A stretch of 64,000 nt of DNA from the IMG/VR virus record IMGVR_UViG_3300009193_000002. One strand, 5' to 3'. Positions 242 through 63,353 of the stretch are shown one piece after another. A program made the position numbers and the translations under genes. A model generated the notes under the pieces. The model worked only from the letters and a program-made list of their open reading frames with translations. It ran no database searches and was not told the DNA's origin. The stretch comes from a virus. Numbering within the stretch: position 1 is the first letter of the stretch; each line of letters opens with the position of its first letter.

Positions 242-258
242 AATCTTTGGAGTTGACG

Positions 259-3126
259 ATGATTAGTAGAATTAACCCCCTCACGGGGATTGTTGAGCAA
301 CTGATCGACATGCGTAATATTAACATGTTGAGCGAGTTGATTGACCGAATTGAGTTTACCGAAAACGCAGTTGTTGGTTTAGATATTGAAACCCACGATG
401 CGGATAGACATGACGGTTTGAACCAATTCATGGAAATGAATCCAAAGTCAAAAGTATTTAAGAAACCTAGAAAGCTCGTGTTCGATACAAACCGAACTAC
501 CCTCTGCGGTGGTTCTATTTATCTCCGAGGAGATGAAACCGTTTATTATATCAATGTTGCTCATGCTGACGTTGAGAACAGAATCCCAAAAGAAATTTTT
601 GCTGAGTTTGTAAAGAAGGTTCGAGATAACAGCCTACTTATCATTCACAATTATCAATTCGAATTCGTCATGCTTATGAAGACAGTCGGCGTTGATATCG
701 GCAAGAACTATGTAGATACCATGCAACTGGCCGTTTCAGCTTATAACTCTGACGAGTACGACAAGGAGCGGTTCAAGAAAGCAGACCTTGGTGGCATGAA
801 AGCTGTCCTTCCTATCATCAAAAAGACCTTTGCCGGATACGTCACAGGAAAGCCTCTGACGACCGAACAGGTTCAAGTCATGAATATGGTCATCGGTAAG
901 CAATCTATCGCAGCACACAGCTATAACGGCTACGTTAGAAGCCTTCGCTACGGTTACGGCCTTAAAGAGATGAGTGAAAAAATATTCGGATATGAGCAGA
1001 CCACGTTCAAAGACGCATTGTTAGGCCGTGCTCATATGGGACAGGTTACCGGTGAAGAAATTCTCCATTACGGTGCGGATGATGCTTACTGGTGTGTACG
1101 TTGCTTTGATTGGCTTATGCAGTTCGTTCAGAATACTAACCCTCAGTTGTTAAACACGTTCTTCACTCAAGAAAATCCAATGGTTAGGATCTTCGGCAAA
1201 AGTTGGATAAAGGGCTGGAGAGTTAATCTTGAGAATATCGAGAAGCGTAATATTTCAGAAAGAAAAATGTATGCTCAGGAGTTATTGAACTTAAGCAATG
1301 CGATTGCTGAAATAAGTTTCATGAGTGCGCCTTCAGCGAGACTAAGCCAGAAGAACCCTAAGTGGTACCTAGGAAAGACGAACGACAAGTACCAAATTTA
1401 CCGAAACAAAATTCAGTTCCTCCTCGATGGCGTTGACGATATCTGCAGCTACTTTGATTTAGAGCATATAAGCTCAGATGACTTAGAGAATGAAGAAATT
1501 GCGTTTGAACTTTGTCAGTTGACTTCAGGGTCGGTGAGCAAAGCTTGGCTATATGAGCAAGATGTTAAATTAAAGAAAGCTGAGCTGGACAAACGAGGTA
1601 ATTATACTCACTACATGGTTATGCGTACCTTGCTACACGACCTTTGTATGTTGCCTTTCGTTTACATCAAAGGGGAAATAAAAAGTGATGGTGAAGCACG
1701 CGGTACGATGCTTGAGACGGCAGATAGATTAAAGAACGAGCCAGAGCTTTGGCTAAAAGAGTGGAACCGGTACGGAGAGCATACCAATCTACCGGAAGAG
1801 ATGCGTTTAAATCTTGCCAAAGGCATTGCTGCAGCCTACCCGACTGAGACGGTAAAAAGGATCATCACTTCGTTAAATCGAATTGCTGAGATTGAGCAGC
1901 GGATTAAGTTATTTGTAACCTCGTATCGACAGCTGACTGACCCACAGACAGAAAGAATGTATCCGGTTATCAGCTCACTATTGAACACCAGACGAATGGC
2001 GGCTGAGAATCCCAACACAATGCAGCTCTCTAAGCAGGGGGACTCAACCTACGTTCGAGGTTTCTTCTTACCCGAGAACGATGAGCACTTGTTGGTTGCC
2101 ATCGATTGGTCTCAGGTAGAGCTAGTGTTGATTGGTGAGGAGTCTTTAGACCCAGCATTTAAAAAAGCTTATGGTCAGATCCCCTATGAGGATTTGCACT
2201 TAGGAGCGGCAGCTGCAGCGTTGAAAGTGTTTTACCCTGAGTTCACTGAAGAGAATTTGCTTTCGATTAAATCAGGAAGCGAGGAGGATATCTTTGAGCT
2301 TCGTGAGCATTTCCCTAAGGTCTTTATTGATCCGGTTAAGAAAAACCACTTGGAAAATTATCAGGTCTTAAAATTTTGGCGTGGTACTGCCGGTAAGCCT
2401 TCAAACTTCGGCTACTGGTATTCAGGTTCATTGATGACGGTTCAGGAGAAGCTGGGCTGGACAAGCGATGAGATGTGGGAAGGTACCGACAATTACCGGT
2501 TAACTTTCCGAGGGGCTGAGATTTGGCGCAAGGGTGTTATCGAAGAGGTGGGTTACAACGGGTTTGTAAATATCTTTGATGGCCACCGCCGCGTTAGATA
2601 CGAAGCAACCAACGAATGGTTTTTTGAGTTTACGAATAAATGGAGCGCATATAACGACAGCGGCCTTGCTCAGTTCGGCTACATGATAGCTAAAAAGATA
2701 CAACGTAGAGCTGGCAATCAAAGCGTAAACGCAAAGATACAAGGAGGGTGTGCAACCCTAGCCAAACGCTCTATTATCCGCTTAGACGAGATATTAGAGA
2801 CCGGTAAATGGGATGCTAACTTTATTATGCCTATCCATGATGAATTGATATTCAGTGTTCATCATACTCAGGCAGTTGAGTTCTCAAAAATTATTCTAAA
2901 AACGATGTGTGATCATCCTGATTTAGTCTCAGAATTAAAACTGGATGGTACAATATCGATTGGTAAAACCTTGGAGCCCTATCACCCTGTGAAAGCGCCC
3001 TTTGGTCAAATAGAGTTAGACGAAGCTCCACATTTGGAGGGTTATATTCCTGAGAGCCTCGCTGACACAAAGCTAGACGACGCTCACAGACAAAGAGTTG
3101 TCGATTATTTAATGAATAAGGATTGA
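259..3126 (+). CDS. family A DNA polymerase with 3'-5' exonuclease domain
   Basis: Exo motifs LDIETHD and YGADDAYW. Pol motif A DWSQVELVL, motif B RGTAGKPSNFGYWYSG, motif C PIHDELIF. The start is the ATG of GGAGTTGACGATG. Confidence 0.9.
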   Translation: MISRINPLTGIVEQLIDMRNINMLSELIDRIEFTENAVVGLDIETHDADRHDGLNQFMEMNPKSKVFKKPRKLVFDTNRTTLCGGSIYLRGDETVYYINVAHADVENRIPKEIFAEFVKKVRDNSLLIIHNYQFEFVMLMKTVGVDIGKNYVDTMQLAVSAYNSDEYDKERFKKADLGGMKAVLPIIKKTFAGYVTGKPLTTEQVQVMNMVIGKQSIAAHSYNGYVRSLRYGYGLKEMSEKIFGYEQTTFKDALLGRAHMGQVTGEEILHYGADDAYWCVRCFDWLMQFVQNTNPQLLNTFFTQENPMVRIFGKSWIKGWRVNLENIEKRNISERKMYAQELLNLSNAIAEISFMSAPSARLSQKNPKWYLGKTNDKYQIYRNKIQFLLDGVDDICSYFDLEHISSDDLENEEIAFELCQLTSGSVSKAWLYEQDVKLKKAELDKRGNYTHYMVMRTLLHDLCMLPFVYIKGEIKSDGEARGTMLETADRLKNEPELWLKEWNRYGEHTNLPEEMRLNLAKGIAAAYPTETVKRIITSLNRIAEIEQRIKLFVTSYRQLTDPQTERMYPVISSLLNTRRMAAENPNTMQLSKQGDSTYVRGFFLPENDEHLLVAIDWSQVELVLIGEESLDPAFKKAYGQIPYEDLHLGAAAAALKVFYPEFTEENLLSIKSGSEEDIFELREHFPKVFIDPVKKNHLENYQVLKFWRGTAGKPSNFGYWYSGSLMTVQEKLGWTSDEMWEGTDNYRLTFRGAEIWRKGVIEEVGYNGFVNIFDGHRRVRYEATNEWFFEFTNKWSAYNDSGLAQFGYMIAKKIQRRAGNQSVNAKIQGGCATLAKRSIIRLDEILETGKWDANFIMPIHDELIFSVHHTQAVEFSKIILKTMCDHPDLVSELKLDGTISIGKTLEPYHPVKAPFGQIELDEAPHLEGYIPESLADTKLDDAHRQRVVDYLMNKD

Positions 3127-3128
3127 CG

Positions 3129-3359
3129 ATGATTGCAGAAGATTACCCAAAAGGATTACTAAATCAAATTCCTGAGTTAGAATGGTGTTGTGGTTCACTT
3201 GTTGATAAACCGAAGTTAGTGAGCCAAGTGCGCGATTTAATTAACTATAATAAGGCATTGGAAAGAGCGGTTATGGAAATTAACCCTAAGCACCCTGCCC
3301 TCAGGAATATTAACAATGAACTCGGTGAACAACGTGATAAAAATTCCCCAACCTTTTGA
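3129..3359 (+). CDS. hypothetical small protein
   Basis: The start is the ATG of AAGGATTGACGATG, which overlaps the polymerase stop. No recognisable motif. Confidence 0.5.
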   Translation: MIAEDYPKGLLNQIPELEWCCGSLVDKPKLVSQVRDLINYNKALERAVMEINPKHPALRNINNELGEQRDKNSPTF

Positions 3360-4099: not shown

Positions 4100-4127
4100 G
4101 AACTCACAAACAACTAGGAAATTGACG

Positions 4128-4712
4128 ATGTATAAAGTTTTAAATGGTGACAAATTCTCTAAGCTTTGGATGGATATTATTGAGTTTAGAGGAGCCTTTG
4201 GTTTACCTTGCAACCAACCCAACAACGATAACACCGAGCTTCACATTGAATTATTGCGCGAAGAGCTGATAGAAGGATTCTCATCCACCGAGAGAGCTTT
4301 GCAGATAGACGGCATTATTGATAGTGCGTATGTAGTCATGGGGTACTTTGTAGAAAATTCGCTAACTTACGAAACATTAAAAATGCAACACCCTTATCTG
4401 CTGGGGCTTTTAGACACATTCCTCTGTGCTGCCGAGAATTTAAAATTTAACTTTTTCGACGCATGGGGTATTGTACACAGAAGCAATCTTTCAAAAATAT
4501 GTACCCTAGCCAACGTTGGATTAACACTAGACTTCTATCGAGAGCTAGGTATTTCAGCCGCTGCCGACCCTGTTCATTCGGAGCACACCGTGGGTGAAGC
4601 GTTATTTATTGTGAAAGTGAAAGAAACGACTGTGTTGGGTGATAAAACCTTCCCAAGCGGCAAGGTTCTGAAATGTATTGAATACATGGAGGCAGACCTA
4701 AGTCGACTATAA
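4128..4712 (+). CDS. MazG-like all-alpha NTP pyrophosphohydrolase
   Basis: Acidic helices ELLREELIEG and DGIIDSAYV plus VHRSNLSK, as in phage MazG-like pyrophosphatases. The start is the ATG of AGGAAATTGACGATG. Confidence 0.55.
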   Translation: MYKVLNGDKFSKLWMDIIEFRGAFGLPCNQPNNDNTELHIELLREELIEGFSSTERALQIDGIIDSAYVVMGYFVENSLTYETLKMQHPYLLGLLDTFLCAAENLKFNFFDAWGIVHRSNLSKICTLANVGLTLDFYRELGISAAADPVHSEHTVGEALFIVKVKETTVLGDKTFPSGKVLKCIEYMEADLSRL

Positions 4713-4724
4713 GGTAAATGATTA

Positions 4725-4743: not shown

Positions 4744-4769
4744 TTCTCTTAACAATTTGGAAAATGACG

Positions 4770-7700
4770 ATGATTAAAACTAATAATAAGGGTGCCCCGC
4801 TTACCGTATTTAAAACCGGTAGTGGTGTGCTTACAAAGACGCTTACCCGTGTTCACGGCGAGATCAAATCAGAAGCGCCTAAGATGTTCTCCGGCATTGC
4901 CAACACCGTCAATCTATCACTAAAAGAATTACCCAACTTCATCAACGGACTAGAATCAGATGAGTGTTTTTCACTTGGTGTTTTCGAAGGGTATCAAGAC
5001 AAAAAAATTGAAGTGTTGTCTGTAAATGAATTTGAAAACAGGGGCTATCAGTACCCTGTTCACGTTGACGACTCAGGAACCTATGGGACTCGCTCAGGTA
5101 AGTCGATGAAGCAATCGCACCGTGGTTTCATCATGATGGATTACGATGTCGATGAGCAAGAAAAGAACCCAATAAACTGCCCGTTAGAGTTTATTCGTTT
5201 ACTCAACAAAGCAGTGCCTGAATTAGAACTAGCCGACACCTCTTTCGTTAGAACATTCTCGACCTCAGGTGGTTTATATCTGAAGAGTTCAGGGGAATGT
5301 ATTGCCGAGCCTAGAGGCTTCCATATTTATTTCCAAGTAAAAGATGCACGCGATATTAAACGCTTCTCGGATGCGTTAGAAAAGCGTTGCTGGCTTGCAG
5401 GGCTGGGTCATATAAAGTTATCAAGAAACGGAAGCAAGATGCTACGCGTTCCTTTTGATACCTCAGTATTCCAACCGGAAAGATTGTGTTTCGAAGCGGG
5501 GGCATTCATCCCTGAGAACGAGGACTTTTATCAAAAGCGTCCGATGCCTGAGTATTACGGCAAGGCCCACGAAGTTCTGGATACAAAGAAGCTATCAACG
5601 GTTGACGACCAGCGCCTCCGTGAGCTTAAAGAAGTTCAAAACGATGCCAAGACTTGCCCTAAGCTTTTAAACCGCTTAGAGAAGCTGAGAGAGATTAATA
5701 TAAAGCGTATTGTGCATGAGAGGCACTATACCAAAGACAGGATTGATGAAGAGACAGCGCGTAAGATTGTTTTAGGACGTGAGAGCTTCATCCTTCATCC
5801 AAGTGATCACTTAGAGTTTGAAGATGGTAGAGTCGCCACGGTTATGTACGCAGCGTTAAACCCGTTAGAGTTTGACAAAGCGTCTTGTGTAGACCCCTTC
5901 AGACCGGAGAAAGGCGCATCTAAGGCTAAGTTTTATGCCAACTTCGATAAGTGGGGTAACACTAACCCAGTGATTAACTCTTTCGTTGAAGGTGGTCGCC
6001 AATTCGTTTTAAGAAAGTCGATATCACATCATCAAGAAAAACCGCCAGCTGCACCGTCAAGCTTAGGTCACTTGTTTGAAAAGCCGTACATACTTGAACA
6101 GCAATACTTACCAGAGATTACGTTGCGCTCGGGTTACACCTTTGTGAAGTCGAGTAAAGGAACCGGTAAAACTTATTCGTTGGCCAAGCAAATCAAGGCT
6201 ACGGAGGGCAGAGTATTGTCAATCAGCCACCTTATTTCACTGGCTAAGACAACGGCTAAAGTCTTCAATCTTGAGGATTACAATGAGGTTGAAGGTAGAA
6301 ACTTGAGAATGTGCCCTCGCCTTTCAATATGTTTGCCTAGCTTAAGACGAATCGAAGGCACGCAATATAACATCATAATTATTGATGAAGCGTGTCAGTT
6401 ACTTAGAGCGTTAAAGTCGCCGGTTGTTGAGTTCCCAGCGGCGACAGTAAGAACATTGAGAAACCTTTGCCAGATGGCCAACAAAGTTGTTTTGATGGAT
6501 GCAGATTTAAACGAGGAGATGATTGAACTAATGTACAACCCGAAGTTTGGGATCCTCGATAAAGAAAAAGCAATGCACCTTGTAGAGAATAATTTTAAAC
6601 CGGCAAAAGAGAAAGGCAGCGGGATTGAGCTTTACAAGAACAATGATGAAAAAGCAGACGTCAACGCCTTCACGAATAAGCTACTTGAAGTGGTTTACGA
6701 GCAAGGCCAAGGTACCTTCTATGCGAGTAACACGCGTAAGGATGTGCTTAAGAAAGCCAGTTTGTTGATAAAGAAATTTGGGGGTGACCCGATTATTGCT
6801 GAAGAGCATTTCATCACTGAGGTTGCCGGTCGCCGTATCATTACGATAACCAGCCACAATTCTCAGAATGAAGAAGTGCAAACGTTTGTAAAGGCTATCA
6901 ACACTGAGTTGAGACACGATGACATTTTATTAAGTTCACCCTCGATGGGGACAGGCCACTCGATTGATGCTACGGACGGACAAAGTTTCTTTGCTGAAAC
7001 TTTTGGCTACTTCAGCAAACGCTCGGGTAACTTACCCTCGGATTGTGCTCAGCATATGTCCCGAGTAAGAGAATGCACAAAGATTCACTTGTGCATTCAG
7101 GACAACGTTCAGCAATATCCGACAACGCCTATTGAGATTTTAGCTCGGGACATCAACGGTAAAAAGATGACCTTAGATAATCAGATGCATTTCTCGAACG
7201 TGGCGGAATACGACCTTGTAACAAAGTCGATTACTTATAACGACTTTGGTTGGAACAGCTGGTACGTGGCCCTTACGGTTATTGAGAACAATAACAAAAA
7301 TGAATTTGGTGAAAACTTGCTAACGCAGCTTGAGAACGAAGGTTACACGATTAACAAATTGTATGACCTCGACACAGGTACCGGTAGATTTGCCAATAAA
7401 CAAATTCGCCAGTTAGCGGAAGAGCTTACTCGAAAAGAACGTGAGGAGATGGTGGCCACGCCTTTGATTGATGATGAGGAATATCATTTATTGAATATTG
7501 GTGTGAACCTAAGTGCGGATGAGACCAGACGGGTAACTAAGAAGCGTCTTGCCCATACCTTTGGCTTTGAGGAAGACGGTGAAGAGTTTGCCGATTTGTT
7601 ATTGTCCTCGACTCAAAGAATTGCTGCGAGAAGAAAGTCTTTGATCCTAGGAGCAGACATTAATCATCTTAGATTTACCGATGCTTTGAACCGAATAGAT

Positions 7701-8337: not shown

Positions 8338-8826
8338 ATGACGGAAATTGACGAGGATAAGATTTACTTATCGGCGGGGGTTTATCATTACCCTCACAAA
8401 AAGAGACTCCACTTCAAATCAGACCATTACAGATGGATTTGGGTCTCACGCTACTTAAGAGAGAACGAATACAAGTTCAAACGAGACAAACCGTTTGCAA
8501 CAAAGATTTATCTTCAGATAAGAAATGTTATCTCCCCTAAAATAATCAGCTCCAAAGACCTTTATGCTGCCATTGGTTTTTACACGACCTCAATTAACTA
8601 TTTGAAGTCGATTAAGGCTGGGGATAATCGTTGGAACCTATACGGTCGCCCTGACGGTAAAGTTACTGAGAAGGAGGCTGCCTATGCCCGAGACAAGATG
8701 GTTAAAGTGCATTCAGGGTATTTAATGGATCTTAGAAAGTCCCGAAAAAAGAACAACCGAATAGTTGTGAATAATGGGGCTAGAAATCAAATACCAAACA
8801 GGGGTAAACTAGCAGTTAAGAAGTAG
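8338..8826 (+). CDS. ProQ/FinO-domain RNA-binding protein
   Basis: KPFATKIYLQI..SSKDLYAAIGFYTTSINYLKSIKAGDNRWNLYGRPDGKVTEKEAAYARDK aligns by eye with E. coli ProQ [61 protein letters not shown]. Confidence 0.7.
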   Translation: MTEIDEDKIYLSAGVYHYPHKKRLHFKSDHYRWIWVSRYLRENEYKFKRDKPFATKIYLQIRNVISPKIISSKDLYAAIGFYTTSINYLKSIKAGDNRWNLYGRPDGKVTEKEAAYARDKMVKVHSGYLMDLRKSRKKNNRIVVNNGARNQIPNRGKLAVKK

Positions 8827-8849
8827 ACCCCACAATTAGGAAATTGACG

Positions 8850-9290
8850 ATGGCACGACCTGAAAAGACCTTTAACACAGGCAAAGACTCAGAACTCATT
8901 TTTGAAGACCGTATGACTGAACGAAATGCTTTTGTCTATCGATTCGAAGACTACGCCGATATTAATTATAAAGGCGGCAGTAACAGCCCAAACAAAGCGG
9001 TAGATGCTAAGCCTTCAGATTATATTGTGAGTCTTAGTGGTAGCTTATTCTTTGCCGAGGTAAAGAGTGTGGCCACCAAGAGAAGCTTCCCCTTCTCAAG
9101 TATCACCAAAGAACAATGGAGGACAGCATTTAAAGTAGTCCAAACAGGAGGATTATATTTCTTCTTTATTCATTTTAGAGAACTAGACGAATGGTTTATG
9201 GTTCCGGCAAAAGAAATCATTAGGCATGAAAAACGCTCAATGAATCAGCCCGACTTAGTACCCTTCAGAATAAATAACGATTTTACATAA
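8850..9290 (+). CDS. PD-(D/E)xK nuclease, RecU-like Holliday junction resolvase candidate
   Basis: PSDYIVSL...FFAEVKS (D...E-x-K) with a following Q-containing helix and a GG..FF.I strand, the RecU-like order. Motif ATG. Confidence 0.5.
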   Translation: MARPEKTFNTGKDSELIFEDRMTERNAFVYRFEDYADINYKGGSNSPNKAVDAKPSDYIVSLSGSLFFAEVKSVATKRSFPFSSITKEQWRTAFKVVQTGGLYFFFIHFRELDEWFMVPAKEIIRHEKRSMNQPDLVPFRINNDFT

Positions 9291-9311
9291 AAACACCACA
9301 GGAAATTGACG

Positions 9312-10319
9312 ATGAAAATTAAACACTTTGAAACCCCTAAAGGAGTTCAGCTTTTAGGCGACCCCCATTTAGGCAAGAAATTCAATTCACACGTTCCAAG
9401 AGAAAGACTTGGCGAACGCGAGGAGATGGTTCGTAAACAGTTCCTTGAAGAGCTTGAACCTATCGACGACACAATCACTGATCACATTTGCATGGGTGAC
9501 TTATTTGATAAGTTCCGTGTGCCTGAAGAAGTTATTTTGTTTGCTGCCCAAGCATACCGTGATGCCGCCGCGAGAAACCCGAATATTGAGTATTACATCA
9601 TTCGAGGTAACCACGACGCCAGCCGTGATTCATCTTTTAAATCAAGCTTTGACGTTTTTGAAGCGTTGCTTGAAGACGTTGACGGCGTGAATGTCATATC
9701 AGAAGAACCTTTGCATGTGATTTCGCTAGGACAGGAGCACACTCTATACCCTTGGCACCCGTTCATTCATGCCAAAGAAATGGTTGAGCTGCACCCCCCA
9801 ACTAAAGGCGGTTACGTTTATGGCCACTGGGATATTTTAGCCTTTGAAGAAGGCAGCAGCTCTGAAGAAAACTTTGTACCTACCGAGCACTTCAAAGAGT
9901 GTGCTGGAATTTACACAGGGCATTATCATTTACCCAAGGCATTCCCGTTAGACGGTATGACAATTAACATCACCGGTTCAATGCAGCCATACACCCACGC
10001 TGAAGACGAGGTGGGTGAACTTTACCGGACAGAAAGCTTGCCAGAAGTTGTGGCCACGCTGTCAGCCAATCCAGAGCATTACAAGTACGTTAACTTGAGA
10101 GTGCTGCTTGGCCCTGACGAAGTGCCGCTGGCGGACATCGATTGCCTTAGCTATCGAGTAAAGAGAATGCAGAAGGATGAACAGGAAAATATCGACGTCG
10201 ATATCGAGAGCTTCAACCTTGAATCAATATTTAAAAATACAATGAGCGACTTTAAAGTCTCAGACGAAACAACGTCTAAGTTATGGACTCGCTTCTTATC
10301 AGTTAATGAGGCTGAATAA
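9312..10319 (+). CDS. SbcD/Mre11-like metallophosphoesterase nuclease
   Basis: GDPHLG, GDLFD, RGNHD, GHWD and GHYH calcineurin-like motifs. Immediately upstream of the SbcC-like ATPase gene. Confidence 0.85.
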   Translation: MKIKHFETPKGVQLLGDPHLGKKFNSHVPRERLGEREEMVRKQFLEELEPIDDTITDHICMGDLFDKFRVPEEVILFAAQAYRDAAARNPNIEYYIIRGNHDASRDSSFKSSFDVFEALLEDVDGVNVISEEPLHVISLGQEHTLYPWHPFIHAKEMVELHPPTKGGYVYGHWDILAFEEGSSSEENFVPTEHFKECAGIYTGHYHLPKAFPLDGMTINITGSMQPYTHAEDEVGELYRTESLPEVVATLSANPEHYKYVNLRVLLGPDEVPLADIDCLSYRVKRMQKDEQENIDVDIESFNLESIFKNTMSDFKVSDETTSKLWTRFLSVNEAE

Positions 10320-12350: not shown

Positions 12351-12358
12351 CTATTAAA

Positions 12359-12374: not shown

Positions 12375-12394
12375 GCCTACCTTTGGAATTGACG

Positions 12395-12610
12395 ATGATG
12401 AATGTATGTAGCTTTCTAACTGCAGAAGAAATGAAAACTTTAACTGGCGCAACACACCGCGCAAAACAAAAACTGGTTCTGGATAAAAACCGAATCCGTT
12501 ATGTGGAGCAAGAAGACGGTAAATTAAAAGTAGCTTGGGTAAGTTTACTGGGGAACGACCTCCCCACCCAGACTAAACAAAAGGAGCCGGATTTTTCTCA
12601 TTTAACTTAA
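12395..12610 (+). CDS. DUF4224-like small protein (excisionase/recombination directionality candidate)
   Basis: FLTAEEMKTLTGATHRAKQKLVLDKNRIRYVEQEDGKLKV resembles DUF4224 proteins found upstream of phage integrases. Motif ATG. Confidence 0.55.
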   Translation: MMNVCSFLTAEEMKTLTGATHRAKQKLVLDKNRIRYVEQEDGKLKVAWVSLLGNDLPTQTKQKEPDFSHLT

Positions 12611-12633
12611 CTATAGCTACGTGGAAATTAACT

Positions 12634-33184: not shown

Positions 33185-33233
33185 CCCCGCAGCTAAGGCG
33201 GGGTTGACGTGGAAATTGACGATGATTGAGTAA
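33185..33233 (+). promoter_or_regulatory. orphan hairpin + GGAAATTGACGATG block on the + strand, followed by only a 3-codon ORF
   Basis: CCCCGC-agctaag-GCGGGG (33185-33203), GGAAATTGACGATG (33211-33224), then ATG ATT GAG TAA. It sits inside the minus-strand tail module. Confidence 0.6.
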
Positions 33234-33307
33234 GTAAACTTACTAATCGAGGTCTATATTAACGACTTTTTTATTTTCGTCAATAGCTTTTATTAATATT
33301 TATTATA

Positions 33308-39656: not shown

Positions 39657-39675
39657 TCGTCAATCTCCAAGTTGT

Positions 39676-40343: not shown

Positions 40344-40366
40344 TCGTCAATTTCCTAATTGTTTAA

Positions 40367-41251: not shown

Positions 41252-41279
41252 CGTCAATCTCCAAATTTTAGGTTATACT
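41251..41279 (+). promoter_or_regulatory. candidate sigma70-type promoter for the + strand gene 41307-41627
   Basis: TCGTCA (-35-like, 4/6), a 17-nt spacer, then TATACT (-10, 5/6). AGGAG RBS at 41291-41295. Confidence 0.35.
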
Positions 41280-45813: not shown

Positions 45814-45841
45814 CGTCAATCTCCTAATTTTCAGTTATCAA

Positions 45842-47429: not shown

Positions 47430-47511
47430 CGTCATTTTCCAAATTTTTTAACTCTTAACGAGTTTCTTTATTACTATAACTTTATCTAACCAGTAATTTC
47501 TAGTATCTCAG

Positions 47512-48960: not shown

Positions 48961-48974
48961 CGTCAGTTTCCAAG

Positions 48975-50775: not shown

Positions 50776-50846
50776 CGTCTTGCCTAATTGTAGTCAAAAG
50801 GTATCATGGATAGCCTATACCCTATTAAACCACATTGGAATTGACG

Positions 50847-51323
50847 ATGCACTATCCCACAATCACCCCTGAAATTTTTACGACGCTTTCTACCCTAGCC
50901 GCCATGACTAAAAGTCACCGCACTTACTTGACCTCAGACGACTGCCCTTATGATGCAAAGACGCTCATGCTGCTGGAGAAAATATTCGCGCCTGAGGAAA
51001 AAGAGGGTATTAGCCCCGAAGAAGTTTTTCTATACGATTTAGAATCCATCGATTTATCTCAGGAGACGTTAACCCTATACAACGAGATGCGAAGCTTTAA
51101 GAAAACGCTAAGTGCCGAAGACACCACCGAAAAGATGGGTACTTTTCGAGTCATGGTTACTCTCATGGAAAAGATTCTGGTTATCCAAGAACGTTCCAGC
51201 GGGGTGGTCAACTTCAAAGCCTTCAAAGAGCTTATGCTGGACTCGATGGACAGATATCTAAGCCCGACACAAAAGACCGAGTTCATCGATTCAGTGCAAG
51301 AAACATTACAGACGGAGGGCTAA
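50847..51323 (+). CDS. hypothetical protein divergent from the terminase gene
   Basis: Start at GGAATTGACGATG. No motif recognised. Confidence 0.5.
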   Translation: MHYPTITPEIFTTLSTLAAMTKSHRTYLTSDDCPYDAKTLMLLEKIFAPEEKEGISPEEVFLYDLESIDLSQETLTLYNEMRSFKKTLSAEDTTEKMGTFRVMVTLMEKILVIQERSSGVVNFKAFKELMLDSMDRYLSPTQKTEFIDSVQETLQTEG

Positions 51324-54247: not shown

Positions 54248-54264
54248 TACAAGGAATTGACGAA

Positions 54265-55104
54265 ATGACTACTACTACTAAGGCAGCACCAAAAACACGT
54301 AAAGCATCTACTACTAAAACAGCACCTAAAAAAGCACCAGTAAAGACCGCGCCTGAAGCCGTTGAACCAAAAGCAATTAAGGCATTGAACTTGCCTGAAC
54401 TATTAGGCGCATCAATTATGCAAGGTCTACAGTCTGAAGCGGGCAAGGTGGTTAGTGCTTTACTTATCGCTATGCAACACAAGGGCACGCCAACGGAAGC
54501 CAACGTTGCACAAACTGGTTTCGGTATCGACTTAACAGGCAAGGCTTTAAAAGAGCACGCACAATATAACCGAATGAAAGGTTTTAGACGTCACTATGTG
54601 GTTCCATTCGCGGCGGTTCTTAAACAGCTACCCGACCAATTGACCATGTTAATTGAGACGTTAGAAACTCCAACGCCGGAAGCCGTTATTGAACAGCTTA
54701 GCCTTTACTCATTCGGTGTAAACGGTATGCCTGAATCAAAGCAAGAATGGATCGAGTTTTGCGATGGTTTTGCCAAGACGGATGCGGACAAAGTGAAGCA
54801 AACCGCCCCAAGTAAGCAAGCGCCAAAGGTAACAGTAGGCAAGCCACAAAAGGACAAAAAACATTCTTCAGCTGGTGGACGTGAAAAAGGCCAACAAAAT
54901 ACAGGCAGTACAGCGGCCCAAGTTGAGGCCAACGAAAGTGCGGGTAAATCTGAAGTTGAAAAAGAGACGCTTCAGCAGAGCACCGATAAAACGCGTGCTT
55001 TAACCAATGATTTTGGCCGCCGTATGGGTGAACTTAAACTGGACAGCGCAACATTGCTCAAGGTTATGGCCGCCTTCAAAGACACAATAGCAGCCATCGC
55101 TTAA
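54265..55104 (+). CDS. protein with a K/A/T/P-rich histone-H1-like N-terminus (DNA-binding candidate)
   Basis: MTTTTKAAPKTRKASTTKTAPKKAPVKTAPE..., with a second basic/low-complexity stretch near residues 190-230. Flanked by non-coding repeat regions. Confidence 0.55.
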   Translation: MTTTTKAAPKTRKASTTKTAPKKAPVKTAPEAVEPKAIKALNLPELLGASIMQGLQSEAGKVVSALLIAMQHKGTPTEANVAQTGFGIDLTGKALKEHAQYNRMKGFRRHYVVPFAAVLKQLPDQLTMLIETLETPTPEAVIEQLSLYSFGVNGMPESKQEWIEFCDGFAKTDADKVKQTAPSKQAPKVTVGKPQKDKKHSSAGGREKGQQNTGSTAAQVEANESAGKSEVEKETLQQSTDKTRALTNDFGRRMGELKLDSATLLKVMAAFKDTIAAIA

Positions 55105-55750: not shown

Positions 55751-55772
55751 TACTACATACTGGAAATTGACG

Positions 55773-56144
55773 ATGATATACAACTTTAAAGAAAGAGCAT
55801 TCGAGCTAGAATGCTTTAATCTAGCGACCTGCAAAGGTCAAACCATTCAAATTCGCGGTTTAGCTGAGCAATACAAAACCGTTCGAAACATACTGGCTGT
55901 TTACCCTCATTTGTGCGATGCCCTCTATCAACGTGGTTATAGAGTAATCGACAAACCCGAGAGTAAATTCAGAAAAATAGCCTCATCGCCGTTGGTCGAC
56001 ATTCCCATCGTTGCCCCTGCCCGACCGTTGCTATTTGATGCCACAAAATACGCCTTATTGGACGAAATCTTTTGGAATGTTCACGCCCTTATTCCACTGG
56101 AAGTCCAACGCCCTACGTCGCAAACAGACGGCCAACTTAACTAA
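55773..56144 (+). CDS. hypothetical protein
   Basis: Motif ATG. 123 aa. No motif recognised. Confidence 0.55.
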   Translation: MIYNFKERAFELECFNLATCKGQTIQIRGLAEQYKTVRNILAVYPHLCDALYQRGYRVIDKPESKFRKIASSPLVDIPIVAPARPLLFDATKYALLDEIFWNVHALIPLEVQRPTSQTDGQLN

Positions 56145-56497: not shown

Positions 56498-56580
56498 AGA
56501 CGTAACACCTCAATGCCGTTCTGTCCGGCAGCAAATGACAGAAATTTAGTGTAACTATATGATTTACAAGGAAATTGACG

Positions 56581-56742
56581 ATGAAAAATTACGTAAATGT
56601 GCTCGATATTCAGTTCAAAAATATGTTCGGGGAAGACCTTTTTCCTGAAGATTTGGAACTTGAGTGCGTTCTAACCGACCTGAGAGACGATTTAAGCGGA
56701 TATAATTCTGACGAGGTAGCTCAGGATGGAATTCTAATTTGA
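56581..56742 (+). CDS. small highly acidic protein (53 aa), absent from the ORF track
   Basis: Perfect AAGGAAATTGACGATG block. Translation MKNYVNVLDIQFKNMFGEDLFPEDLELECVLTDLRDDLSGYNSDEVAQDGILI has 13 D/E against 3 K/R. Confidence 0.55.
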   Translation: MKNYVNVLDIQFKNMFGEDLFPEDLELECVLTDLRDDLSGYNSDEVAQDGILI

Positions 56743-57041: not shown

Positions 57042-57075
57042 GGGCATGTGCCCCCTTTAAGGAAATTGACGATGA
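57039..57075 (+). repeat. 37-nt junction unit copy 1: TAG-GGGCATGTGCCCCC-TTTAAGGAAATTGACG-ATGA
   Basis: Identical 37-mer at 57039, 57513 and 57978. Confidence 0.9.
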
Positions 57076-57515: not shown

Positions 57516-57549
57516 GGGCATGTGCCCCCTTTAAGGAAATTGACGATGA
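57513..57549 (+). repeat. 37-nt junction unit copy 2
   Basis: Identical to 57039-57075. Confidence 0.9.
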
Positions 57550-57980: not shown

Positions 57981-58014
57981 GGGCATGTGCCCCCTTTAAG
58001 GAAATTGACGATGA
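57978..58014 (+). repeat. 37-nt junction unit copy 3
   Basis: Identical to 57039-57075. Confidence 0.9.
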
Positions 58015-58556: not shown

Positions 58557-58616
58557 AATTACTGGCCGTTTCGGTCGCCGTTTACTGAGGTTTAATTATC
58601 TCTAAGGAAAAAGACG

Positions 58617-59648
58617 ATGTTTGATTATATAGATATGAGCGAAGCTGAGCTCAAAGAAAACTTTGATTTGAATTTTAGGTCTGAGTTTGACCCGACTGGG
58701 AAATTCACGATTGAAGTTGGCCCTCATGTGTTGAGGGGTGAAATTGAGCGGGATGTTTATCATGAGCCTGACTCTGAAGAATTGAGCATGGAAGATAATT
58801 TGTTCAAAGTCCTGAGTTTTACCGGTAACTATTCTATTGGCCATACACATGGCTATGAAAAAAATAACCGCTTTGAAATGATTGCTCAGTTAGTTTCTGA
58901 GTATGATCAAGCCGCTTATGACCGCTGGGAATCGAGTGACCAGAATCCATCTGACTATGACAAAATACTGGTTAAGTTTGATAAATATTATATCCACAAG
59001 CCAGTGTATGTTTACGAACACTCAGGCATCACCATTTCAACGCAGCCTTTCAGCTGCCAATGGGATTCGGGCACACTTGGGATTGCTATATGTGCCAAAG
59101 ATGAATATATCAAAGCGTATGGCTTCCCTCGTTTAACGGCTAAACGTACCGCTGATGCCATGGCGCATTTAGATAGCCAAGTGCAATATTTTGACGACTT
59201 GATACAAGGCAACGTCTACGGCTTCACGGTTGAGCTTGATGACGTTTGTCAGGATTCTTGCTGGGGTTTTGTGGGTAATAATTCTAGTGTTCGGGGAGAA
59301 TTAAAAGCCGCGTTGTTTTATTACTGGGCTGAAGTTAAATCTCGTTATGTGGTGCTCGAAAAGCACTGGGCGAAATATGAATCCTTGTGTGAGCTAGAGG
59401 ATAAAGCACAGACCAGTGACGTGCCTTTGAAATTAGCTGAGTATATCAGGATGAAAGAAATCGCCGATGAAATTTATGAGGCTGAAGAGGATGCAATTCA
59501 CACTCTTTTAGAGTCTCTGATGCAGCCTGAGCGATTAAAAATTGCGGTGCTAACACTGGCTCAGAATAATCAAAAAGAGGTTGCTGAGTTGCTAGTAGGG
59601 CTGGCCACGGCCAAGAAATCGCAAGCGTTGGCACAAAACACTTATTAA
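58617..59648 (+). CDS. hypothetical protein (VYVYEHSG...CQWDSGTLG...GNVYGF...DSCWGFVG motifs)
   Basis: Start at AAGGAAAAAGACGATG. 343 aa. The motifs are conserved-looking but not assignable by eye. Confidence 0.6.
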   Translation: MFDYIDMSEAELKENFDLNFRSEFDPTGKFTIEVGPHVLRGEIERDVYHEPDSEELSMEDNLFKVLSFTGNYSIGHTHGYEKNNRFEMIAQLVSEYDQAAYDRWESSDQNPSDYDKILVKFDKYYIHKPVYVYEHSGITISTQPFSCQWDSGTLGIAICAKDEYIKAYGFPRLTAKRTADAMAHLDSQVQYFDDLIQGNVYGFTVELDDVCQDSCWGFVGNNSSVRGELKAALFYYWAEVKSRYVVLEKHWAKYESLCELEDKAQTSDVPLKLAEYIRMKEIADEIYEAEEDAIHTLLESLMQPERLKIAVLTLAQNNQKEVAELLVGLATAKKSQALAQNTY

Positions 59649-59672: not shown

Positions 59673-59688
59673 GTAAGGAAAATTGACG

Positions 59689-59937
59689 ATGAATACCATT
59701 AAAACAGTAGGATTTTTTGCGACAGAAACAACCATTAAACATATCATTCGAAAGTTTAAAAACTGGGGTGTGGTTGTTGAAAACCCACTCTATCAAGAGA
59801 TTTACGTGGATATTGTTCGAATGAGAGGCACGTATATCAATAAAAATGAAACGCTTTTCGACCAGTTAATTACAGAGCTGTGTGGTCAATACCCTGACTT
59901 AGCCGACGACGTAGAATTTTTAGTGATCACTGAATAG
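59689..59937 (+). CDS. hypothetical small protein
   Basis: Motif ATG. 82 aa. Confidence 0.6.
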   Translation: MNTIKTVGFFATETTIKHIIRKFKNWGVVVENPLYQEIYVDIVRMRGTYINKNETLFDQLITELCGQYPDLADDVEFLVITE

Positions 59938-59948
59938 GAAATTTGACG

Positions 59949-60719
59949 ATGACAACAACAACTTTAAACAAAACAGAAATGGCCAAGCATGACTTGGTAT
60001 TGGGACTTTATCAGGTCGGTAATTTTTTACAGCGTGCTGATGCTATCCGTTATTTAACGGGTACTGATTGCCGCCTAAGTCTAACGACTGAGGAAAAATT
60101 TTGGCTGCACGAAAAATTGCGAAATGATGCTTTTGGGTACGGCATGAAAGCCTTTCGAACCATGGAATTTTCAGACTTCTTGAGATTTGCAGGTAAATCA
60201 CTGATTGAACAAGCGGATGATTATGCTGACCGCAATCAACTGGAAATTAAAAAAGGGGTTCGAAAGGTGCCGAAGACGACCTCGAATATGTTTGCGTATT
60301 TTCAGGATTGTTTTAAATCCTATGCCACATATGAAAAGGCCGCTAAGGAGATGAACCACAGCCAAAAACAAAGCTTTGATTGGCACTTTTCTGGTTTACA
60401 TGATGTTGGCCAGCTGGTTTTTCATGTCAAGAATTTTATGCGAGTTCGTAACACCCTACTTACTAACACGGGCTTTCGTAGACTTGAGAAAGTGTTGTTT
60501 GAGCCGATGATGGGCGGCAATTTGGATTGGTGGCGCAAAGGCTATCCTTGCGATGTTCTAGTCTGGGATGTGCAGCACTTTGAAAGCGGCGACACGGGAA
60601 AATTGAAGTATGTGGTCAATACAAAATATTGTGCGAGTCATATCATGGAAGCGCAGACCATCGACAACCACTTGAAAGCCAGTGGAAATTCACAAGATTT
60701 TAAGGAATTTACAGCATGA
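59949..60719 (+). CDS. hypothetical protein
   Basis: Start at AGGAAATTTGACGATG. 256 aa. Confidence 0.6.
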   Translation: MTTTTLNKTEMAKHDLVLGLYQVGNFLQRADAIRYLTGTDCRLSLTTEEKFWLHEKLRNDAFGYGMKAFRTMEFSDFLRFAGKSLIEQADDYADRNQLEIKKGVRKVPKTTSNMFAYFQDCFKSYATYEKAAKEMNHSQKQSFDWHFSGLHDVGQLVFHVKNFMRVRNTLLTNTGFRRLEKVLFEPMMGGNLDWWRKGYPCDVLVWDVQHFESGDTGKLKYVVNTKYCASHIMEAQTIDNHLKASGNSQDFKEFTA

Positions 60720-61408: not shown

Positions 61409-61424
61409 CGTAAGGAAATTGATG

Positions 61425-61634
61425 ATGTTTGAAATAACGAAAGACCAATACGACAAAGCGATTGCTGAAAGCGAAAACTTTGAGACGCTGGAAGAAGCCC
61501 ACTCCGAAGGGTTTGTGTCGGTAAATTCTCGAACGGATGGCACGATAATTTCTATTCAAGTTGATACCAAAGAATTTGAATGGGTTGAGCGTCGTAACGA
61601 TATGTTATCAACGCTCTATTACGGTTCACGATAA
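61425..61634 (+). CDS. hypothetical small protein
   Basis: Block variant GGAAATTGATGATG. 69 aa. Confidence 0.55.
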   Translation: MFEITKDQYDKAIAESENFETLEEAHSEGFVSVNSRTDGTIISIQVDTKEFEWVERRNDMLSTLYYGSR

Positions 61635-61647
61635 GGAAAAATTGACG

Positions 61648-61923
61648 ATGACTAATAAACCTAGAAAGTTTCGAGGCTTGGAATACTCGTTAAACAAGCA
61701 AGATTTTTATCATGCTTGGTTAAATACAAAAAAAGAAACTTGGGCGACCGTTGGCCCTCAAGCTAAGATTATTTTAATTGACCTGTTAGAAATGGCGGAA
61801 AGTTTCGGGGAAGAGTCCGCCAGAAAGTACCACGATGAGTTGGAGTTAATCTTGCCCAACCACTACAAAGCCGCTGAAGCAGAGGCTTACACAAAAGATT
61901 ACATTTTAATTAAACTAAACTAA
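61648..61923 (+). CDS. hypothetical small protein
   Basis: Start at AAGGAAAAATTGACGATG. The track's longer ORF from 61561 overlaps the previous gene. Confidence 0.55.
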   Translation: MTNKPRKFRGLEYSLNKQDFYHAWLNTKKETWATVGPQAKIILIDLLEMAESFGEESARKYHDELELILPNHYKAAEAEAYTKDYILIKLN

Positions 61924-61926: not shown

Positions 61927-61941
61927 GGGGCATGTGCCCCC
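61927..61941 (+). terminator. hairpin GGGGCATGTGCCCCC
   Basis: Followed by AAAGGAAATTGACGATG. Confidence 0.6.
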
Positions 61942-61955
61942 AAAGGAAATTGACG

Positions 61956-63353
61956 ATGCAAACTAACTACCCAGAAATTGATTCAGCCACGTATTCAGCT
62001 GAAGACAACAAGCTACGTATTTACACTAACGACCGTATCAGCGATGAGCTGTATGGTGAGCTCAAAGAGCTAGGCTTCAAGTGGGCTCCGATGCAAAAAT
62101 TTTATGGCGCCGCGTGGAATACAAAACGTGAAGACATGGCGATTGCTTTGGCCGGTTCGATTGAGCCTGAGGGCACCACGATGGCTGAGCGTGCTGAAAT
62201 AAAATCCCAGCGTTTGATTGAGATGACCGAGAAGAAAATTCAGCGTGCGTCAGGGTATGCTGAAGCGGCTCAAACTATTGCGGCCAAGATGAGTCACCAG
62301 CCAATTTTGGCCGGTCATCACAGCCAACGCAAAGCGGAAAAAATGAAAGATTCTGCGGAGCGATCGGAGGCAAAAGCCAAAGAGATGGAAAGCAATATTC
62401 AGTATTGGAAGTGGAAAATCTCCGGAGTTATTCACCACGCCAACAAGAAAGCCGATGCGTACACTCGTTCGAATCGCATTAAAACTTTGCTGGCTGATTT
62501 GCGAAAGCACCAACGCAGCTTGAACGATGATGAGTTTCGTTTGAGCTTGTGGGTTCGCTTGGACAAAAAGCGGGATTCAGAAACGATTGATCAGTCTGTT
62601 AAGCAGATTTGCAATCACTATAAATATTCAGTGAATGGCAGCTGGGGCAAATTGAACGACGGTGAGTGGACGACTAGCCATGCAATTGACGTCAATTTAA
62701 AAGCGGCTCAGAAAATTGCGGATTCCAATTTTCACTATCGTTGGATTAATCATATCTTAAATCGCTTGTCGTATGAGCAAAGCTTTTTTGCTGAGACGTC
62801 AAAATTTGAAGGCCAGTTGACTGCGCCAATTCTGCAAACGTTTTGCAGAACACACGGCGCTGAGAAACCGACGGCAAAAGCCACGGAGGGGGGCAAATGG
62901 AAGGTGACAAGCGTTCAATCGCTTCCGATTCAAATTGGTGAAGGTAAAAGTTTGGAGCTGTTAGCGAGCGAATGGGTTGACCTGATGGCCTCGCTTGATT
63001 ACACCGTCCCTGCTCCACCGCCAAAGAAAGCGCCAATTGTGAATCCGTGTGCTGAGTTATTCTCTCATGCTGGAGTGCGTGGCTATGGCGGCAAGCTGGA
63101 GATGATGGAAATTGTTGAGATGACCAAAGCGGACTATGCCAAGCAGCGAGGTGAAATCCGTGGCACGCGTGATTCTTACTGTGGTGAGGTTCGGGTAAAG
63201 GTTACGATCGACACCCGAGAAGCGGCTCAAAAAGAAGCATGGTACTGCCGTCCTTGGGTGGTTGTTTCGTTAACGGATTCGAAGAAACATAAAATCGAAT
63301 CCATCTCGTTTGTAAAACAAGGGGAGTATGTGGCCGGTGAAGAGACTGCATAA
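61956..63353 (+). CDS. DUF3560-like protein
   Basis: SHQPILAGHHSQRKAEK resembles the GQPILVGHHSE-R core of DUF3560 proteins from plasmid leading regions and phages. 465 aa. Confidence 0.55.
   Translation: MQTNYPEIDSATYSAEDNKLRIYTNDRISDELYGELKELGFKWAPMQKFYGAAWNTKREDMAIALAGSIEPEGTTMAERAEIKSQRLIEMTEKKIQRASGYAEAAQTIAAKMSHQPILAGHHSQRKAEKMKDSAERSEAKAKEMESNIQYWKWKISGVIHHANKKADAYTRSNRIKTLLADLRKHQRSLNDDEFRLSLWVRLDKKRDSETIDQSVKQICNHYKYSVNGSWGKLNDGEWTTSHAIDVNLKAAQKIADSNFHYRWINHILNRLSYEQSFFAETSKFEGQLTAPILQTFCRTHGAEKPTAKATEGGKWKVTSVQSLPIQIGEGKSLELLASEWVDLMASLDYTVPAPPPKKAPIVNPCAELFSHAGVRGYGGKLEMMEIVEMTKADYAKQRGEIRGTRDSYCGEVRVKVTIDTREAAQKEAWYCRPWVVVSLTDSKKHKIESISFVKQGEYVAGEETA

Follow-up and report, generated by a model that had tools for sequence, protein, structure and literature searches.

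The DNA analysed here is a stretch of 64,000 nucleotides (nt) from the IMG/VR virus record IMGVR_UViG_3300009193_000002, and this whole stretch is referred to below as the window. It makes up most of the genome, approximately 80 kb, of a temperate siphovirus. The elements in question are a short block that stands immediately before the start codon of many genes of this phage and a candidate small RNA (sRNA) unit, located in a gap of the tail module, whose exposed part is complementary to that block. The block reads GGA(A/G)ATTGACG followed by ATG at approximately 28 gene starts on both strands, as claimed in an original prediction made from the letters alone; the starts listed there all carry the block before a long open reading frame (ORF), with one start moved from 63995 to 63996. 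Approximately 27-29 of the approximately 63-68 probable genes have the block 5' of them. Early, replication (DNA polymerase, primase-helicase, SbcD), integrase-region and late structural genes (portal, scaffold-like, major capsid, major tail, chaperone, tape measure) bear it alike, which had also been claimed. Positions of the individual features are provided in Table 1.

The motif GGARATTGACG was matched exactly 15 times in the window against 0.05 expected, and 15 or more matches were obtained in 0 of 100 shuffles; with up to one mismatch allowed, ATTGACGATG gave 34 matches against 3.7 expected. All of the approximately 28 start sites are oriented with their own gene, and the orientation bias of blocks is approximately 29:1. 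Across 23 canonical sites, the five letters of TGACG at positions -5 to -1 were retained in 23/23, 23/23, 23/23, 22/23, and 23/23 cases (the single exception being a C-to-T change), whereas the GGA of the Shine-Dalgarno (SD) sequence was retained in just 18-19 of the 23. Expressed as information content, the spacer (-8 to -1) holds approximately 12.0 bits and the SD triplet approximately 3.4 bits, both values being upper bounds given that the canonical sites were picked by motif; the claim that the spacer is conserved as strongly as the SD was thus borne out. The AUG directly follows GACG in 23 of the 26 strong sites, with GGA acting as the SD, and positions +4 to +6 carry little information. 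The median gap upstream of a gene is 31 nt where the block is present and 4 nt where it is absent, and most genes of the latter group overlap a neighbour. The rule that describes this distribution is that the block is found where at least 11 nt of non-coding space precede a gene and is absent where genes overlap or abut.

The distribution of the block outside the window was examined in 80 portal-anchored relatives from IMG/VR (identified below, where needed, by L numbers). An over-represented spacer hexamer was found only in a sub-clade with portal identity of at least 57% and 39-48% GC, whereas more distant relatives, low-GC ones included, had SD hexamers only and no spacer hexamer. The search of relatives that had been proposed thus found a close sub-clade that keeps the block and distant relatives without it. 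An exact 14-mer scan of IMG/VR returned scattered single matches among the matches listed. Starts with a T[TC]GAC spacer numbered 21/63 in the window and 22/75 in Pseudoalteromonas phage KB12-38, the closest deposited relative (50% identity in the large terminase, TerL), compared with 0/43 and 0/53 in the unrelated Pseudoalteromonas phages H105/1 and RIO-1. By this measure the spacer is not the generic ribosome binding site (RBS) context of the host, in line with what had been argued, although the two unrelated phages serve as a proxy of the host genus of KB12-38, which may not be that of the window phage.

Two tail genes are separated by a gap of 203 nt whose sense strand contains the block in reverse-complement form (33211-33224, -). 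The new element described here is a conserved unit in this gap (33173-33283, -), made up of a predicted promoter, a 5' hairpin, an unpaired seed and a predicted terminator. Its seed, CAUCGUCAAUUUCC, is exactly complementary to the whole block together with the AUG. Single-sequence folds in four lineages gave z-scores of -3.7 to -5.8 and left the seed largely unpaired between two hairpins; in a consensus fold of ten sequences, 9 of the 14 pairs showed compensatory changes, and the seed was the most conserved stretch. The same anatomy (-35 and -10 boxes, 5' hairpin, seed, and a GC hairpin with a U-run) was found in all clade members, including KB12-38 and two lineages whose blocks read TCGACG in place of TTGACG (TC and TT genomes, respectively). 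The -35 and -10 boxes are kept across lineages while the promoter spacers diverge. Comparison of the unit with Rfam gave no match, C4 and FinP included, and returned just generic, sub-threshold leader and terminator look-alikes. A gap of 176-222 nt is present at this junction in 13 of 13 block-bearing loci anchored on the major tail gene. The two flanking tail genes abut or overlap in 39 block-less relatives, and the annotation of Achromobacter phage JWF has a 4-nt overlap between them.

Predicted pairing between this seed and the translation-initiation regions (TIRs) of the window separates the genes into two groups. Duplex energies are bimodal (-18 to -27 versus -3 to -13 kcal/mol), and a duplex of -18 kcal/mol or below is predicted between the seed and 25 of the 61 TIRs, against 0.07 expected for shuffled seeds. 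In-register complementarity between seed and site spans 9-17 nt and extends past the block at some sites. The seed's CAUCG pairs with the G of AUG, which fits the strict GACG-AUG adjacency of the window genome. When both strands of the whole window were scanned, sites at -21 kcal/mol or below were gene starts with five exceptions, namely the antisense of the RNA gene, an orphan block (53773-53786), a copy in the coding sequence of a ProQ/FinO-domain gene (8343-8353), and single sites at 63113 (+) and 63012 (-).

Block alleles differ among eight lineages and include TTGACG, TCGACG, GGAUUGACA, and GGAUUGACGAUAU. The window and most close relatives have (GGA)RATTGACG-ATG, five contigs have TCGACG-ATG at the same orthologous genes, KB12-38 has GGATTGAC(A)-N1-6-ATG, and L143/L249 have GGATTGACGAT-ATG. 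In L252 (IMGVR_UViG_3300036770_008728; 2300-13300; 51% GC), a block GGATTAACAA(A)C is present at at least four gene starts, from which a seed of UUGUUAAUCC is predicted for that genome. Where the ATG lies 2-3 nt off its usual place, the element TTGACGAT is still present. When many vertically inherited sites change in concert, as here, a reader that acts in trans is called for.

The seed follows these alleles. It reads AUCGUCAAUUUCC in TT genomes and AUCGUCGAUUUCC in the TC genomes L211-L213; in L291, a separate TC lineage of low GC, it is CAUCGUCGAUUU, and genomes with GGAAUUGACG blocks have AUCGUCAAUUCC. Seed and block of the same genome matched in 8 of 8 lineages, among them L285, whose seed had been foretold from the L143/L249 block allele before the L285 tail region was read. 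Duplex energies were also calculated for every seed against the TIR set of every genome; the true seed-genome assignment was the unique optimum of 5,040 permutations with seven lineages and of 40,320 with eight. TT-type genomes, which have an A in the seed, contained TC blocks in 0 of approximately 117 cases, and TC genomes were mixed, with 0-4 TT blocks and 5-8 TC blocks. This asymmetry matches base pairing, since a G in the seed can pair with C or U, in keeping with mixed genomes, while an A pairs with U only, in keeping with pure TT genomes. The lineage alleles, together with a complementary seed that co-varies with them, uphold the suggestion of the original prediction that something beyond 16S pairing selects the spacer.

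The block, the sRNA gap, and the ProQ/FinO-domain gene co-occur, and relatives without the block have neither of the other two. A homolog of the ProQ/FinO-domain protein was found in one of 50,697 deposited phages, KB12-38. In ten SbcD-anchored loci searched by local tblastn, the homolog was present in two (L249 and L252), which were the only two with the block, and JWF has neither block nor homolog. The gene carries the block copy mentioned above within its codons 2-6 (8343-8353, +; -23.9 kcal/mol), with its own ordinary SD upstream, and the copy may form an autoregulatory link between chaperone and sRNA. FinO is known as a helper of FinP in its pairing with the traJ RBS, and binding to terminator hairpins is known for FinO-domain proteins (PMC9977716). 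The block had been proposed as a target of this protein, an idea that receives indirect support: the gene is a genuine PF04352 member and co-occurs with the block in every case examined. The protein is more plausibly an sRNA chaperone than a sequence-specific reader of the block.

Two further sets of block copies have no ORF of ordinary length behind them. The orphan block of the window lies in the gap 53621-54265, is complementary to nearly the whole unpaired region of the sRNA, and is itself unpaired in the fold of the - strand, on which a bidirectional terminator (53636-53665) comes after it. It is a candidate decoy or sponge or, if the + strand is transcribed, a candidate sibling copy of the sRNA instead. 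In relatives, the early control gap retains the hexamers TTGACC-15-TATACT as -35 and -10 boxes, with divergent spacers, and encodes a predicted RNA of approximately 180-230 nt that contains an ORF-less, allele-matched block and has a strong terminator at its end. In L124 and L129 this block is a 19-nt perfect complement of the genome's own seed, and in TC genomes it reads GGAAATCGACGA; from these features the unit is likewise a candidate decoy or sponge for the sRNA. The orphan block of the window occupies the equivalent gap but lies on the opposite strand. It shares no homology with the unit of the relatives, and the early promoter region is the only part that aligns.

From the anatomy, conservation, covariation, and co-occurrence of these elements, we infer that an RNA is made and pairs in trans with phage mRNAs, that it represses them with a part played by the ProQ-like protein, and that this serves the phage in a particular way. 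An anti-RBS sRNA of the phage, probably with FinO/ProQ assistance, would repress translation and have the block as its common target; a probability of roughly 55% is assigned to this reading. Under this reading, the block would be a standardised initiation region (SD GGA, 8-nt spacer, AUG) kept near-invariant because many mRNAs share it as an sRNA target. The sRNA, approximately 77 nt long, would start at a sigma-70-type promoter of its own within the tail module and end at the intrinsic terminator. Its exposed CAUCGUCAAUUUCC would pair contiguously (9-17 bp, -18 to -27 kcal/mol) with the SD, spacer, and start codon of approximately 25-30 phage mRNAs, and pairing would occlude the 30S binding site and so repress translation. 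The probable helper is the FinO/ProQ-domain chaperone of the phage, acting as FinO does for FinP at the traJ RBS, and the mRNA of the chaperone carries a site as well. Given that the phage is temperate, the most likely role would be a genome-wide post-transcriptional brake on lytic genes, whether as a lysogeny safeguard, as immunity to related superinfecting phages, or for timing. Block copies in the early control region that lack an ORF and match the allele of the genome may be decoys that relieve the brake.

Several points weigh against this reading. Promoter, terminator, and RNA are all predicted features, and the -10 box of the TC lineages (TAATCT) fails the criteria of the promoter scan. 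A repressor RNA directed against approximately 40% of a phage's own genes, late structural ones included, is counter-intuitive for lytic growth, and one sRNA would need to titrate many abundant mRNAs. An A-rich AAYTT stretch 5' of the late-gene GGA is not complementary to the window seed, so pairing explains only part of the conserved region. No - strand promoter for the orphan block was found in the promoter scan, and it may be transcribed from either strand. The co-occurrence with the ProQ/FinO-domain gene is at clade level and reflects few independent events. A reversed copy of a motif is by definition complementary to the forward copies, so that covariation is also predicted by models in which the anti-block acts only in cis, on the one block 100 nt downstream, or in which the block has another reader; in the former case, agreement with the genome consensus is trivial if the cis block follows that consensus. 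Finally, in the minimum free energy fold of 33085-33310 (-), 13 of the 14 anti-block positions are paired with the RBS of the gene that follows (z = -5.0).

This last fold is what a leader or attenuator acting in cis would predict. The anti-block would then sequester only the RBS of the next tail gene (32616-33104) and set a low expression of the distal tail genes, and the genome-wide block would be an efficient initiation region read by the ribosome or a host factor. The gene downstream of the unit has the block in every lineage, and the genes marked by the block have free space before them and are in many cases highly expressed. Its SD also stands at the canonical optimal aligned spacing, as reportedly set out by Chen et al. 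in 1994. Left unexplained, however, are the invariance of the spacer and its concerted switching between close relatives, as is the absence of the block from unrelated phages of the same host genus and from distant relatives. To our knowledge of the E. coli sequence, UUGACG has no convincing complementarity to the 16S 3' tail, and we know of no convincing register for an extended pairing of the block with that tail. Nor can the block alleles be accounted for by the CGUCAA of 16S helix 34, an element that is conserved universally and is situated downstream of the P site. A strong predicted terminator separates the anti-block from its cis partner, and a dedicated predicted promoter stands upstream; allele-matched, ORF-less blocks are found elsewhere in the genome, and the ProQ/FinO gene co-occurs with the block. 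Action in cis only is considered unlikely but is the main rival of the anti-RBS sRNA.

A reader made of protein is less probable still. In this case the block would be the site of a sequence-specific protein (a RegA-like regulator, the ProQ-like protein, or a stoperator-style DNA repressor), and the reversed copy in the tail gap would be one more site. Concerted allele switches would fit a specificity change of any trans factor, the ProQ/FinO protein does co-occur with the block, and RegA of phage T4 is a precedent for control through multiple sites. Stoperators provide another (PMC3203893). The FinO/ProQ domain, however, recognises structure (terminator hairpins) and not sequence (PMC9977716). 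No RegA-type family was found among 47 proteins, a subset of the ORFs (30 compared with Pfam and 17 with PHROGs). The earlier suggestion of a global translational regulator on the RegA precedent holds in spirit, but the reader indicated by the co-varying, complementary seed is an RNA. A DNA site would need neither a fixed SD/AUG register nor the strong orientation bias. A reversed copy in mRNA would be useless to an RNA-binding protein that reads the forward sequence, yet this copy is conserved, co-varies, and is unpaired between two covarying hairpins. The asymmetry between U/C in the block and A/G in the seed is, moreover, a prediction of base pairing.

That the blocks are DNA-level linkers, short gene-boundary homologies that promote cassette exchange between related phages and persist through it, is highly improbable: the genomes are mosaic, TT-type blocks occur in TC genomes within modules that TT genomes share in identical form, and early genes look like cassettes of hairpin, block, and ORF, but 11-14 nt is very short for homologous recombination, vertically inherited late orthologs with approximately 70% protein identity keep or co-switch the block, and the SD/AUG register, the bias in orientation, the complementary RNA, and the ProQ co-occurrence are unexplained, so that this part of the original prediction is not supported. 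Recombination at blocks may occur as a by-product.

A wider form of the anti-RBS sRNA reading is put forward tentatively, as somewhat more doubtful than probable. The clade may have standardised the RBSs of at least one third of its genes so that one sRNA, with a FinO/ProQ chaperone, could switch the whole lytic programme off, with an allele-matched decoy as the counter. This would be an RNA-level equivalent of an operator or stoperator array, in which the block and seed alleles would be immunity specificities, and it may extend to the start-associated sequences (SAS) described next.

The closest published likeness is to SAS and extended SAS (ESAS), which were reported from Cluster K mycobacteriophages and Cluster EF Microbacterium phages and whose function is unknown (PMC3203893, PMC7302621). 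Both SAS and the block are asymmetric repeats of approximately 13 nt with an SD core right 5' of ATG (SAS at 10-19 genes), both keep to one orientation and favour genes preceded by larger intergenic gaps, and in both the positions that are unable to pair with 16S are conserved as strongly as the SD; SAS is absent from the host, as the block appears to be by the phage proxy above. SAS differs in sequence (GGGATAGGAGCCC / GGGAAAGGACCCC), in host phylum, and in phage family, and the block of the window is therefore an analogue and not a homologue. SAS is confined to the non-structural arm, whereas the window block is also found at portal, capsid, major tail, and tape-measure genes, and in the window a complementary, co-varying sRNA-like unit and a FinO/ProQ gene were identified. 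Each K1 genome has one reversed SAS copy that is not at a gene start (PMC3203893). In Anaya (JF704106) this copy, GGCCTCCTATCCC (59870-59882), lies in the sense strand between gp96 and gp97, in a gap of 385 nt, and a long hairpin predicted there has the copy in its 10-nt loop. By analogy, SAS elements could be antisense-RNA targets too.

The FinOP system resembles the window unit in that a FinO/ProQ-domain protein goes together with a small RNA that has a terminator and exposes a sequence complementary to an RBS (PMC9977716). FinP is, however, a cis-encoded antisense to a single target, traJ, whereas the window RNA, which is known here from sequence alone, would be trans-encoded in a tail gap and directed to approximately 25-30 initiation regions over 64 kb. 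Among small RNAs of temperate phages, the CI RNA of P4 also pairs around an RBS and blocks translation. In P1/P7, heteroimmunity is determined by the c4 RNA, whose pairing takes place around the ant RBS; it resembles the proposed window RNA as a temperate-phage small RNA that blocks translation by pairing around an RBS and whose alleles set specificity between related phages (PMC12197685). It controls one operon (icd-ant), whereas the window RNA would have dozens of targets in all temporal classes and has no match to Rfam C4.

Regulons of the GcvB type that depend on Hfq or ProQ resemble the proposed system in that one conserved seed addresses many mRNAs sharing a TIR motif. Known multi-target regulons are bacterial and use short, imperfect matches, whereas the match in the window phage is a perfect one of 12-14 nt, AUG included, in its own RBSs. 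The target mimic AgvB titrates an sRNA, and the ORF-less units of the window clade may do likewise; a 2025 review of phage sRNAs contains nothing comparable to the proposed system (PMC12197685). T4 RegA shares with the block a global control through sequence common to many phage initiation regions, but it is a protein reader with a loose AU-rich consensus, whereas the evidence from the window points to an RNA reader. Stoperators of Cluster A phages are, like the block, present in many asymmetric copies of approximately 13 bp that are intergenic, oriented with transcription, and carried by a temperate phage (PMC3203893). They are DNA sites of a repressor with a variable position relative to the start, whereas the block has a fixed SD/AUG register and a complementary RNA unit.

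If the anti-RBS sRNA reading is true, it would be the first mechanistic explanation of a genome-wide uniformity of RBSs in a phage, would place a post-transcriptional layer of lysogeny or immunity beside repressor-operator systems, and would give a phage-borne FinO/ProQ protein a defined function. The model can be tested directly with the compensatory allele pairs that exist in nature (U/A versus C/G, and the GGAUUGACA type). The SAS question posed in 2011 would become a concrete hypothesis, in which the reversed copy and its RNA are to be sought. On the practical side, the unit suggests a compact, orthogonal RBS-and-sRNA switch for use in the synthetic biology of marine Gammaproteobacteria.

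Table 1 Positions of block sites, of the candidate sRNA unit, and of other features in the window, with seed/block pairs by lineage
Feature	Position	Strand	Remark
Block + ATG, TGGAGTTGACGATG	248..261	+	DNA polymerase gene 259-3126; 16-nt in-register complementarity to seed
Block + ATG	3118..3131	+	Gene 3129-3359; block TGA is the stop codon of the polymerase gene
Block + ATG	4117..4130	+	Gene 4128-4712
Block variant GGAAAATGACGATG	4759..4772	+	Primase/helicase gene 4770-8276
Block + ATG	8839..8852	+	RecU-like resolvase gene 8850-9290
Block + ATG	9301..9314	+	SbcD-like nuclease gene 9312-10319
Block + ATG	12384..12397	+	DUF4224 (excisionase-like) gene 12395-12610
Weak block GGAAATTAACTATG	12623..12636	+	Integrase gene 12634-13689; -19.3 kcal/mol; upstream ACGTGG matches seed flank too
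Block + ATG	50836..50849	+	Gene 50847-51323
Spacing variant GGAATTGACGAAATG	54252..54267	+	Gene 54265-55104
Block + ATG	55762..55775	+	Early gene 55773-56144; longest seed complementarity (17 nt, -26.7 kcal/mol)
Block + ATG	56570..56583	+	Gene 56581-56742
Block + ATG, GC hairpin upstream	57061..57074	+	Gene 57072-57515
Block + ATG, GC hairpin upstream	57535..57548	+	Gene 57546-57980
Block + ATG, GC hairpin upstream	58000..58013	+	Gene 58011-58274
Weak block GGAAAAAGACGATG	58606..58619	+	Gene 58617-59648
Block + ATG	59678..59691	+	Gene 59689-59937
Block + ATG	59938..59951	+	Gene 59949-60719
Block variant GGAAATTGATGATG	61414..61427	+	Gene 61425-61634
Block + ATG	61637..61650	+	Gene 61648-61923
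Block + ATG	61945..61958	+	Gene 61956-63353
Block GGAAACTGACGATG	33102..33115	-	Minor tail gene 32616-33104, directly downstream of candidate sRNA unit
Spacing variant GGAGATTGACGAATG	39654..39668	-	Tape-measure gene 33699-39656
Spacing variant GGAAATTGACGAATG	40341..40355	-	Gene 39972-40343, tail chaperone position
Block	41249..41262	-	Major-tail-like gene 40418-41251
Block	45811..45824	-	Major capsid gene 44608-45813
Block variant	47427..47440	-	Gene 46254-47429
Block variant	48958..48971	-	Portal gene 47512-48960
Extra block copy	33211-33224	+	Antisense of candidate sRNA seed, not a gene start
Site TGACGATGATTGAG	31053-31066	-	Upstream of J-like tail gene (start 31036); matches 5' half of seed over 14 nt, past block consensus
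Extra block copy, then 2-codon mini-ORF	16373-16386	-	Overlaps SD of gene 15958-16359
Predicted sigma-70-like promoter TTGACG-16-TAATAT	33256..33283	-	Independent promoter scan
Candidate anti-RBS sRNA, ~77 nt	33173..33249	-	5' hairpin (~33231-33250), unpaired seed region, intrinsic terminator
Predicted single-stranded seed region CUCAAUCAUCGUCAAUUUCCACGUCAAC	33203..33230	-	Core 33211-33224 is exact complement of GGAAAUUGACGAUG
Predicted intrinsic terminator AACCCCGCCUUAGCUGCGGGGUU + CUUUAUUUCU	33173..33205	-	Scan: hairpin 33205-33183 + U-run; compensatory stem changes in relatives
Seed/block pair CAUCGUCAAUUUCC with GGAAAUUGACGAUG			Window
Seed/block pair AUCGUCGAUUUCC with GGAAAUCGACGAU			Two separate TC lineages
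Seed/block pair AUCGUCAAUUCC with GGAAUUGACGAU			
Seed/block pair CAUAUUGUCAAUCC with GGAUUGACAAUAUG			KB12-38
Seed/block pair AUAUCGUCAAUCC with GGAUUGACGAUAU			L285
Orphan block, then 4-codon mini-ORF	53773-53786	-	Gap 53621-54265; -30.1 kcal/mol, strongest predicted seed partner in window
Decoy-like unit	L124 4642-4900	-	Equivalent gaps in L129, L127/L128; beside iteron-like repeats and early promoter
ProQ/FinO-domain protein gene	8338..8826	+	PF04352, 48.1 bits against cut-off of 27 (Pfam)
DNA polymerase gene	259-3126	+	
Primase/helicase gene	4770-8276	+	
SbcCD genes	9312-12350	+	SbcD-like nuclease is 9312-10319
Tyrosine integrase gene	12634-13689	+	DUF4224 (excisionase-like) partner 12395-12610
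J-like tail protein gene	22454-31036	-	
Tape measure gene	33699-39656	-	
Major capsid gene	44608-45813	-	
Portal gene	47512-48960	-	
Large terminase gene	48975-50771	-	
GC hairpins	12359, 54234, 55114, 55735, ~57041, ~57515, ~57980, 58542, 59657, 61393, ~61927	+	

A megablast search against deposited phages found no near-identical phage. Achromobacter JWF, Acinetobacter EAb13, and Caulobacter Seuss belong to the same family as KB12-38 and the window phage and are more distant. No tRNA gene and no Rfam family at gathering level was detected in the window. The + strand arm ends with the DUF4224 protein, the tyrosine integrase, and a small ORF (12395-13847), opposite the lysis/tail-fibre arm. Given that the integrase region ends this arm facing the lysis/tail-fibre arm, the window is in the phage (attP) configuration, and the phage is temperate like KB12-38. 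A search of PLSDB for Pseudoalteromonas DNA gave no match. A scan of genome contigs found no prophage of the clade in named genomes and gave one portal match at 61% in L259, a metagenome-assembled genome labelled Comamonadaceae.

Other readings of the block were tried and rejected. As the -35 box of internal promoters (TTGACG resembling TTGACA), it lacks a TATAAT-like box at the right distance in the first approximately 27 nt of the downstream coding sequence. A CsrA-like hairpin with GGA in the loop (CAAUU-AGGA-AAUUG) fits 2-3 sites only, and the variants have no compensatory changes. As a stop codon (TGA/TAG) for termination-reinitiation, the block would serve a single upstream gene, since only the one that ends at 3126 uses the block TGA.

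Some sites have additional signals around them. The site at 31053-31066 (-) is followed by a 9-codon mini-ORF just 5' of the real start of gene 22454-31036, and at this gene and at gene 15958-16359 the block overlaps or precedes a second, ordinary SD. At positions -20 to -12, 5' of the GGA, an A-rich stretch AA[AC]AA[CT]T[TA] is common to late and middle genes (for example, 41263-41271 and 45825-45833), and the corresponding stretch in relatives is AAAATTT. It is complementary to the flank of the L205-type seed (CCAAAU) and not to that of the window seed (CCACGU). The 670-nt gap 5' of gene 55773 contains inverted AAAAACACNTGTTTTT repeats and iteron-like GTTTTTAGG repeats (55143-55200, 55420-55470), with GGGTCTAGG/TTCTCGG iterons at the corresponding place in relatives, and may be an origin or control region. 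Approximately 11 palindromic GC hairpins of the form GGGG(G)CAYRTGCCCC(C) lie between early and middle genes of the + arm, at least nine of them 3-15 nt 5' of an RBS block. These may act as terminators or attenuators that lack a strong U-run, processing or stability elements, or grips for a FinO/ProQ-type protein.

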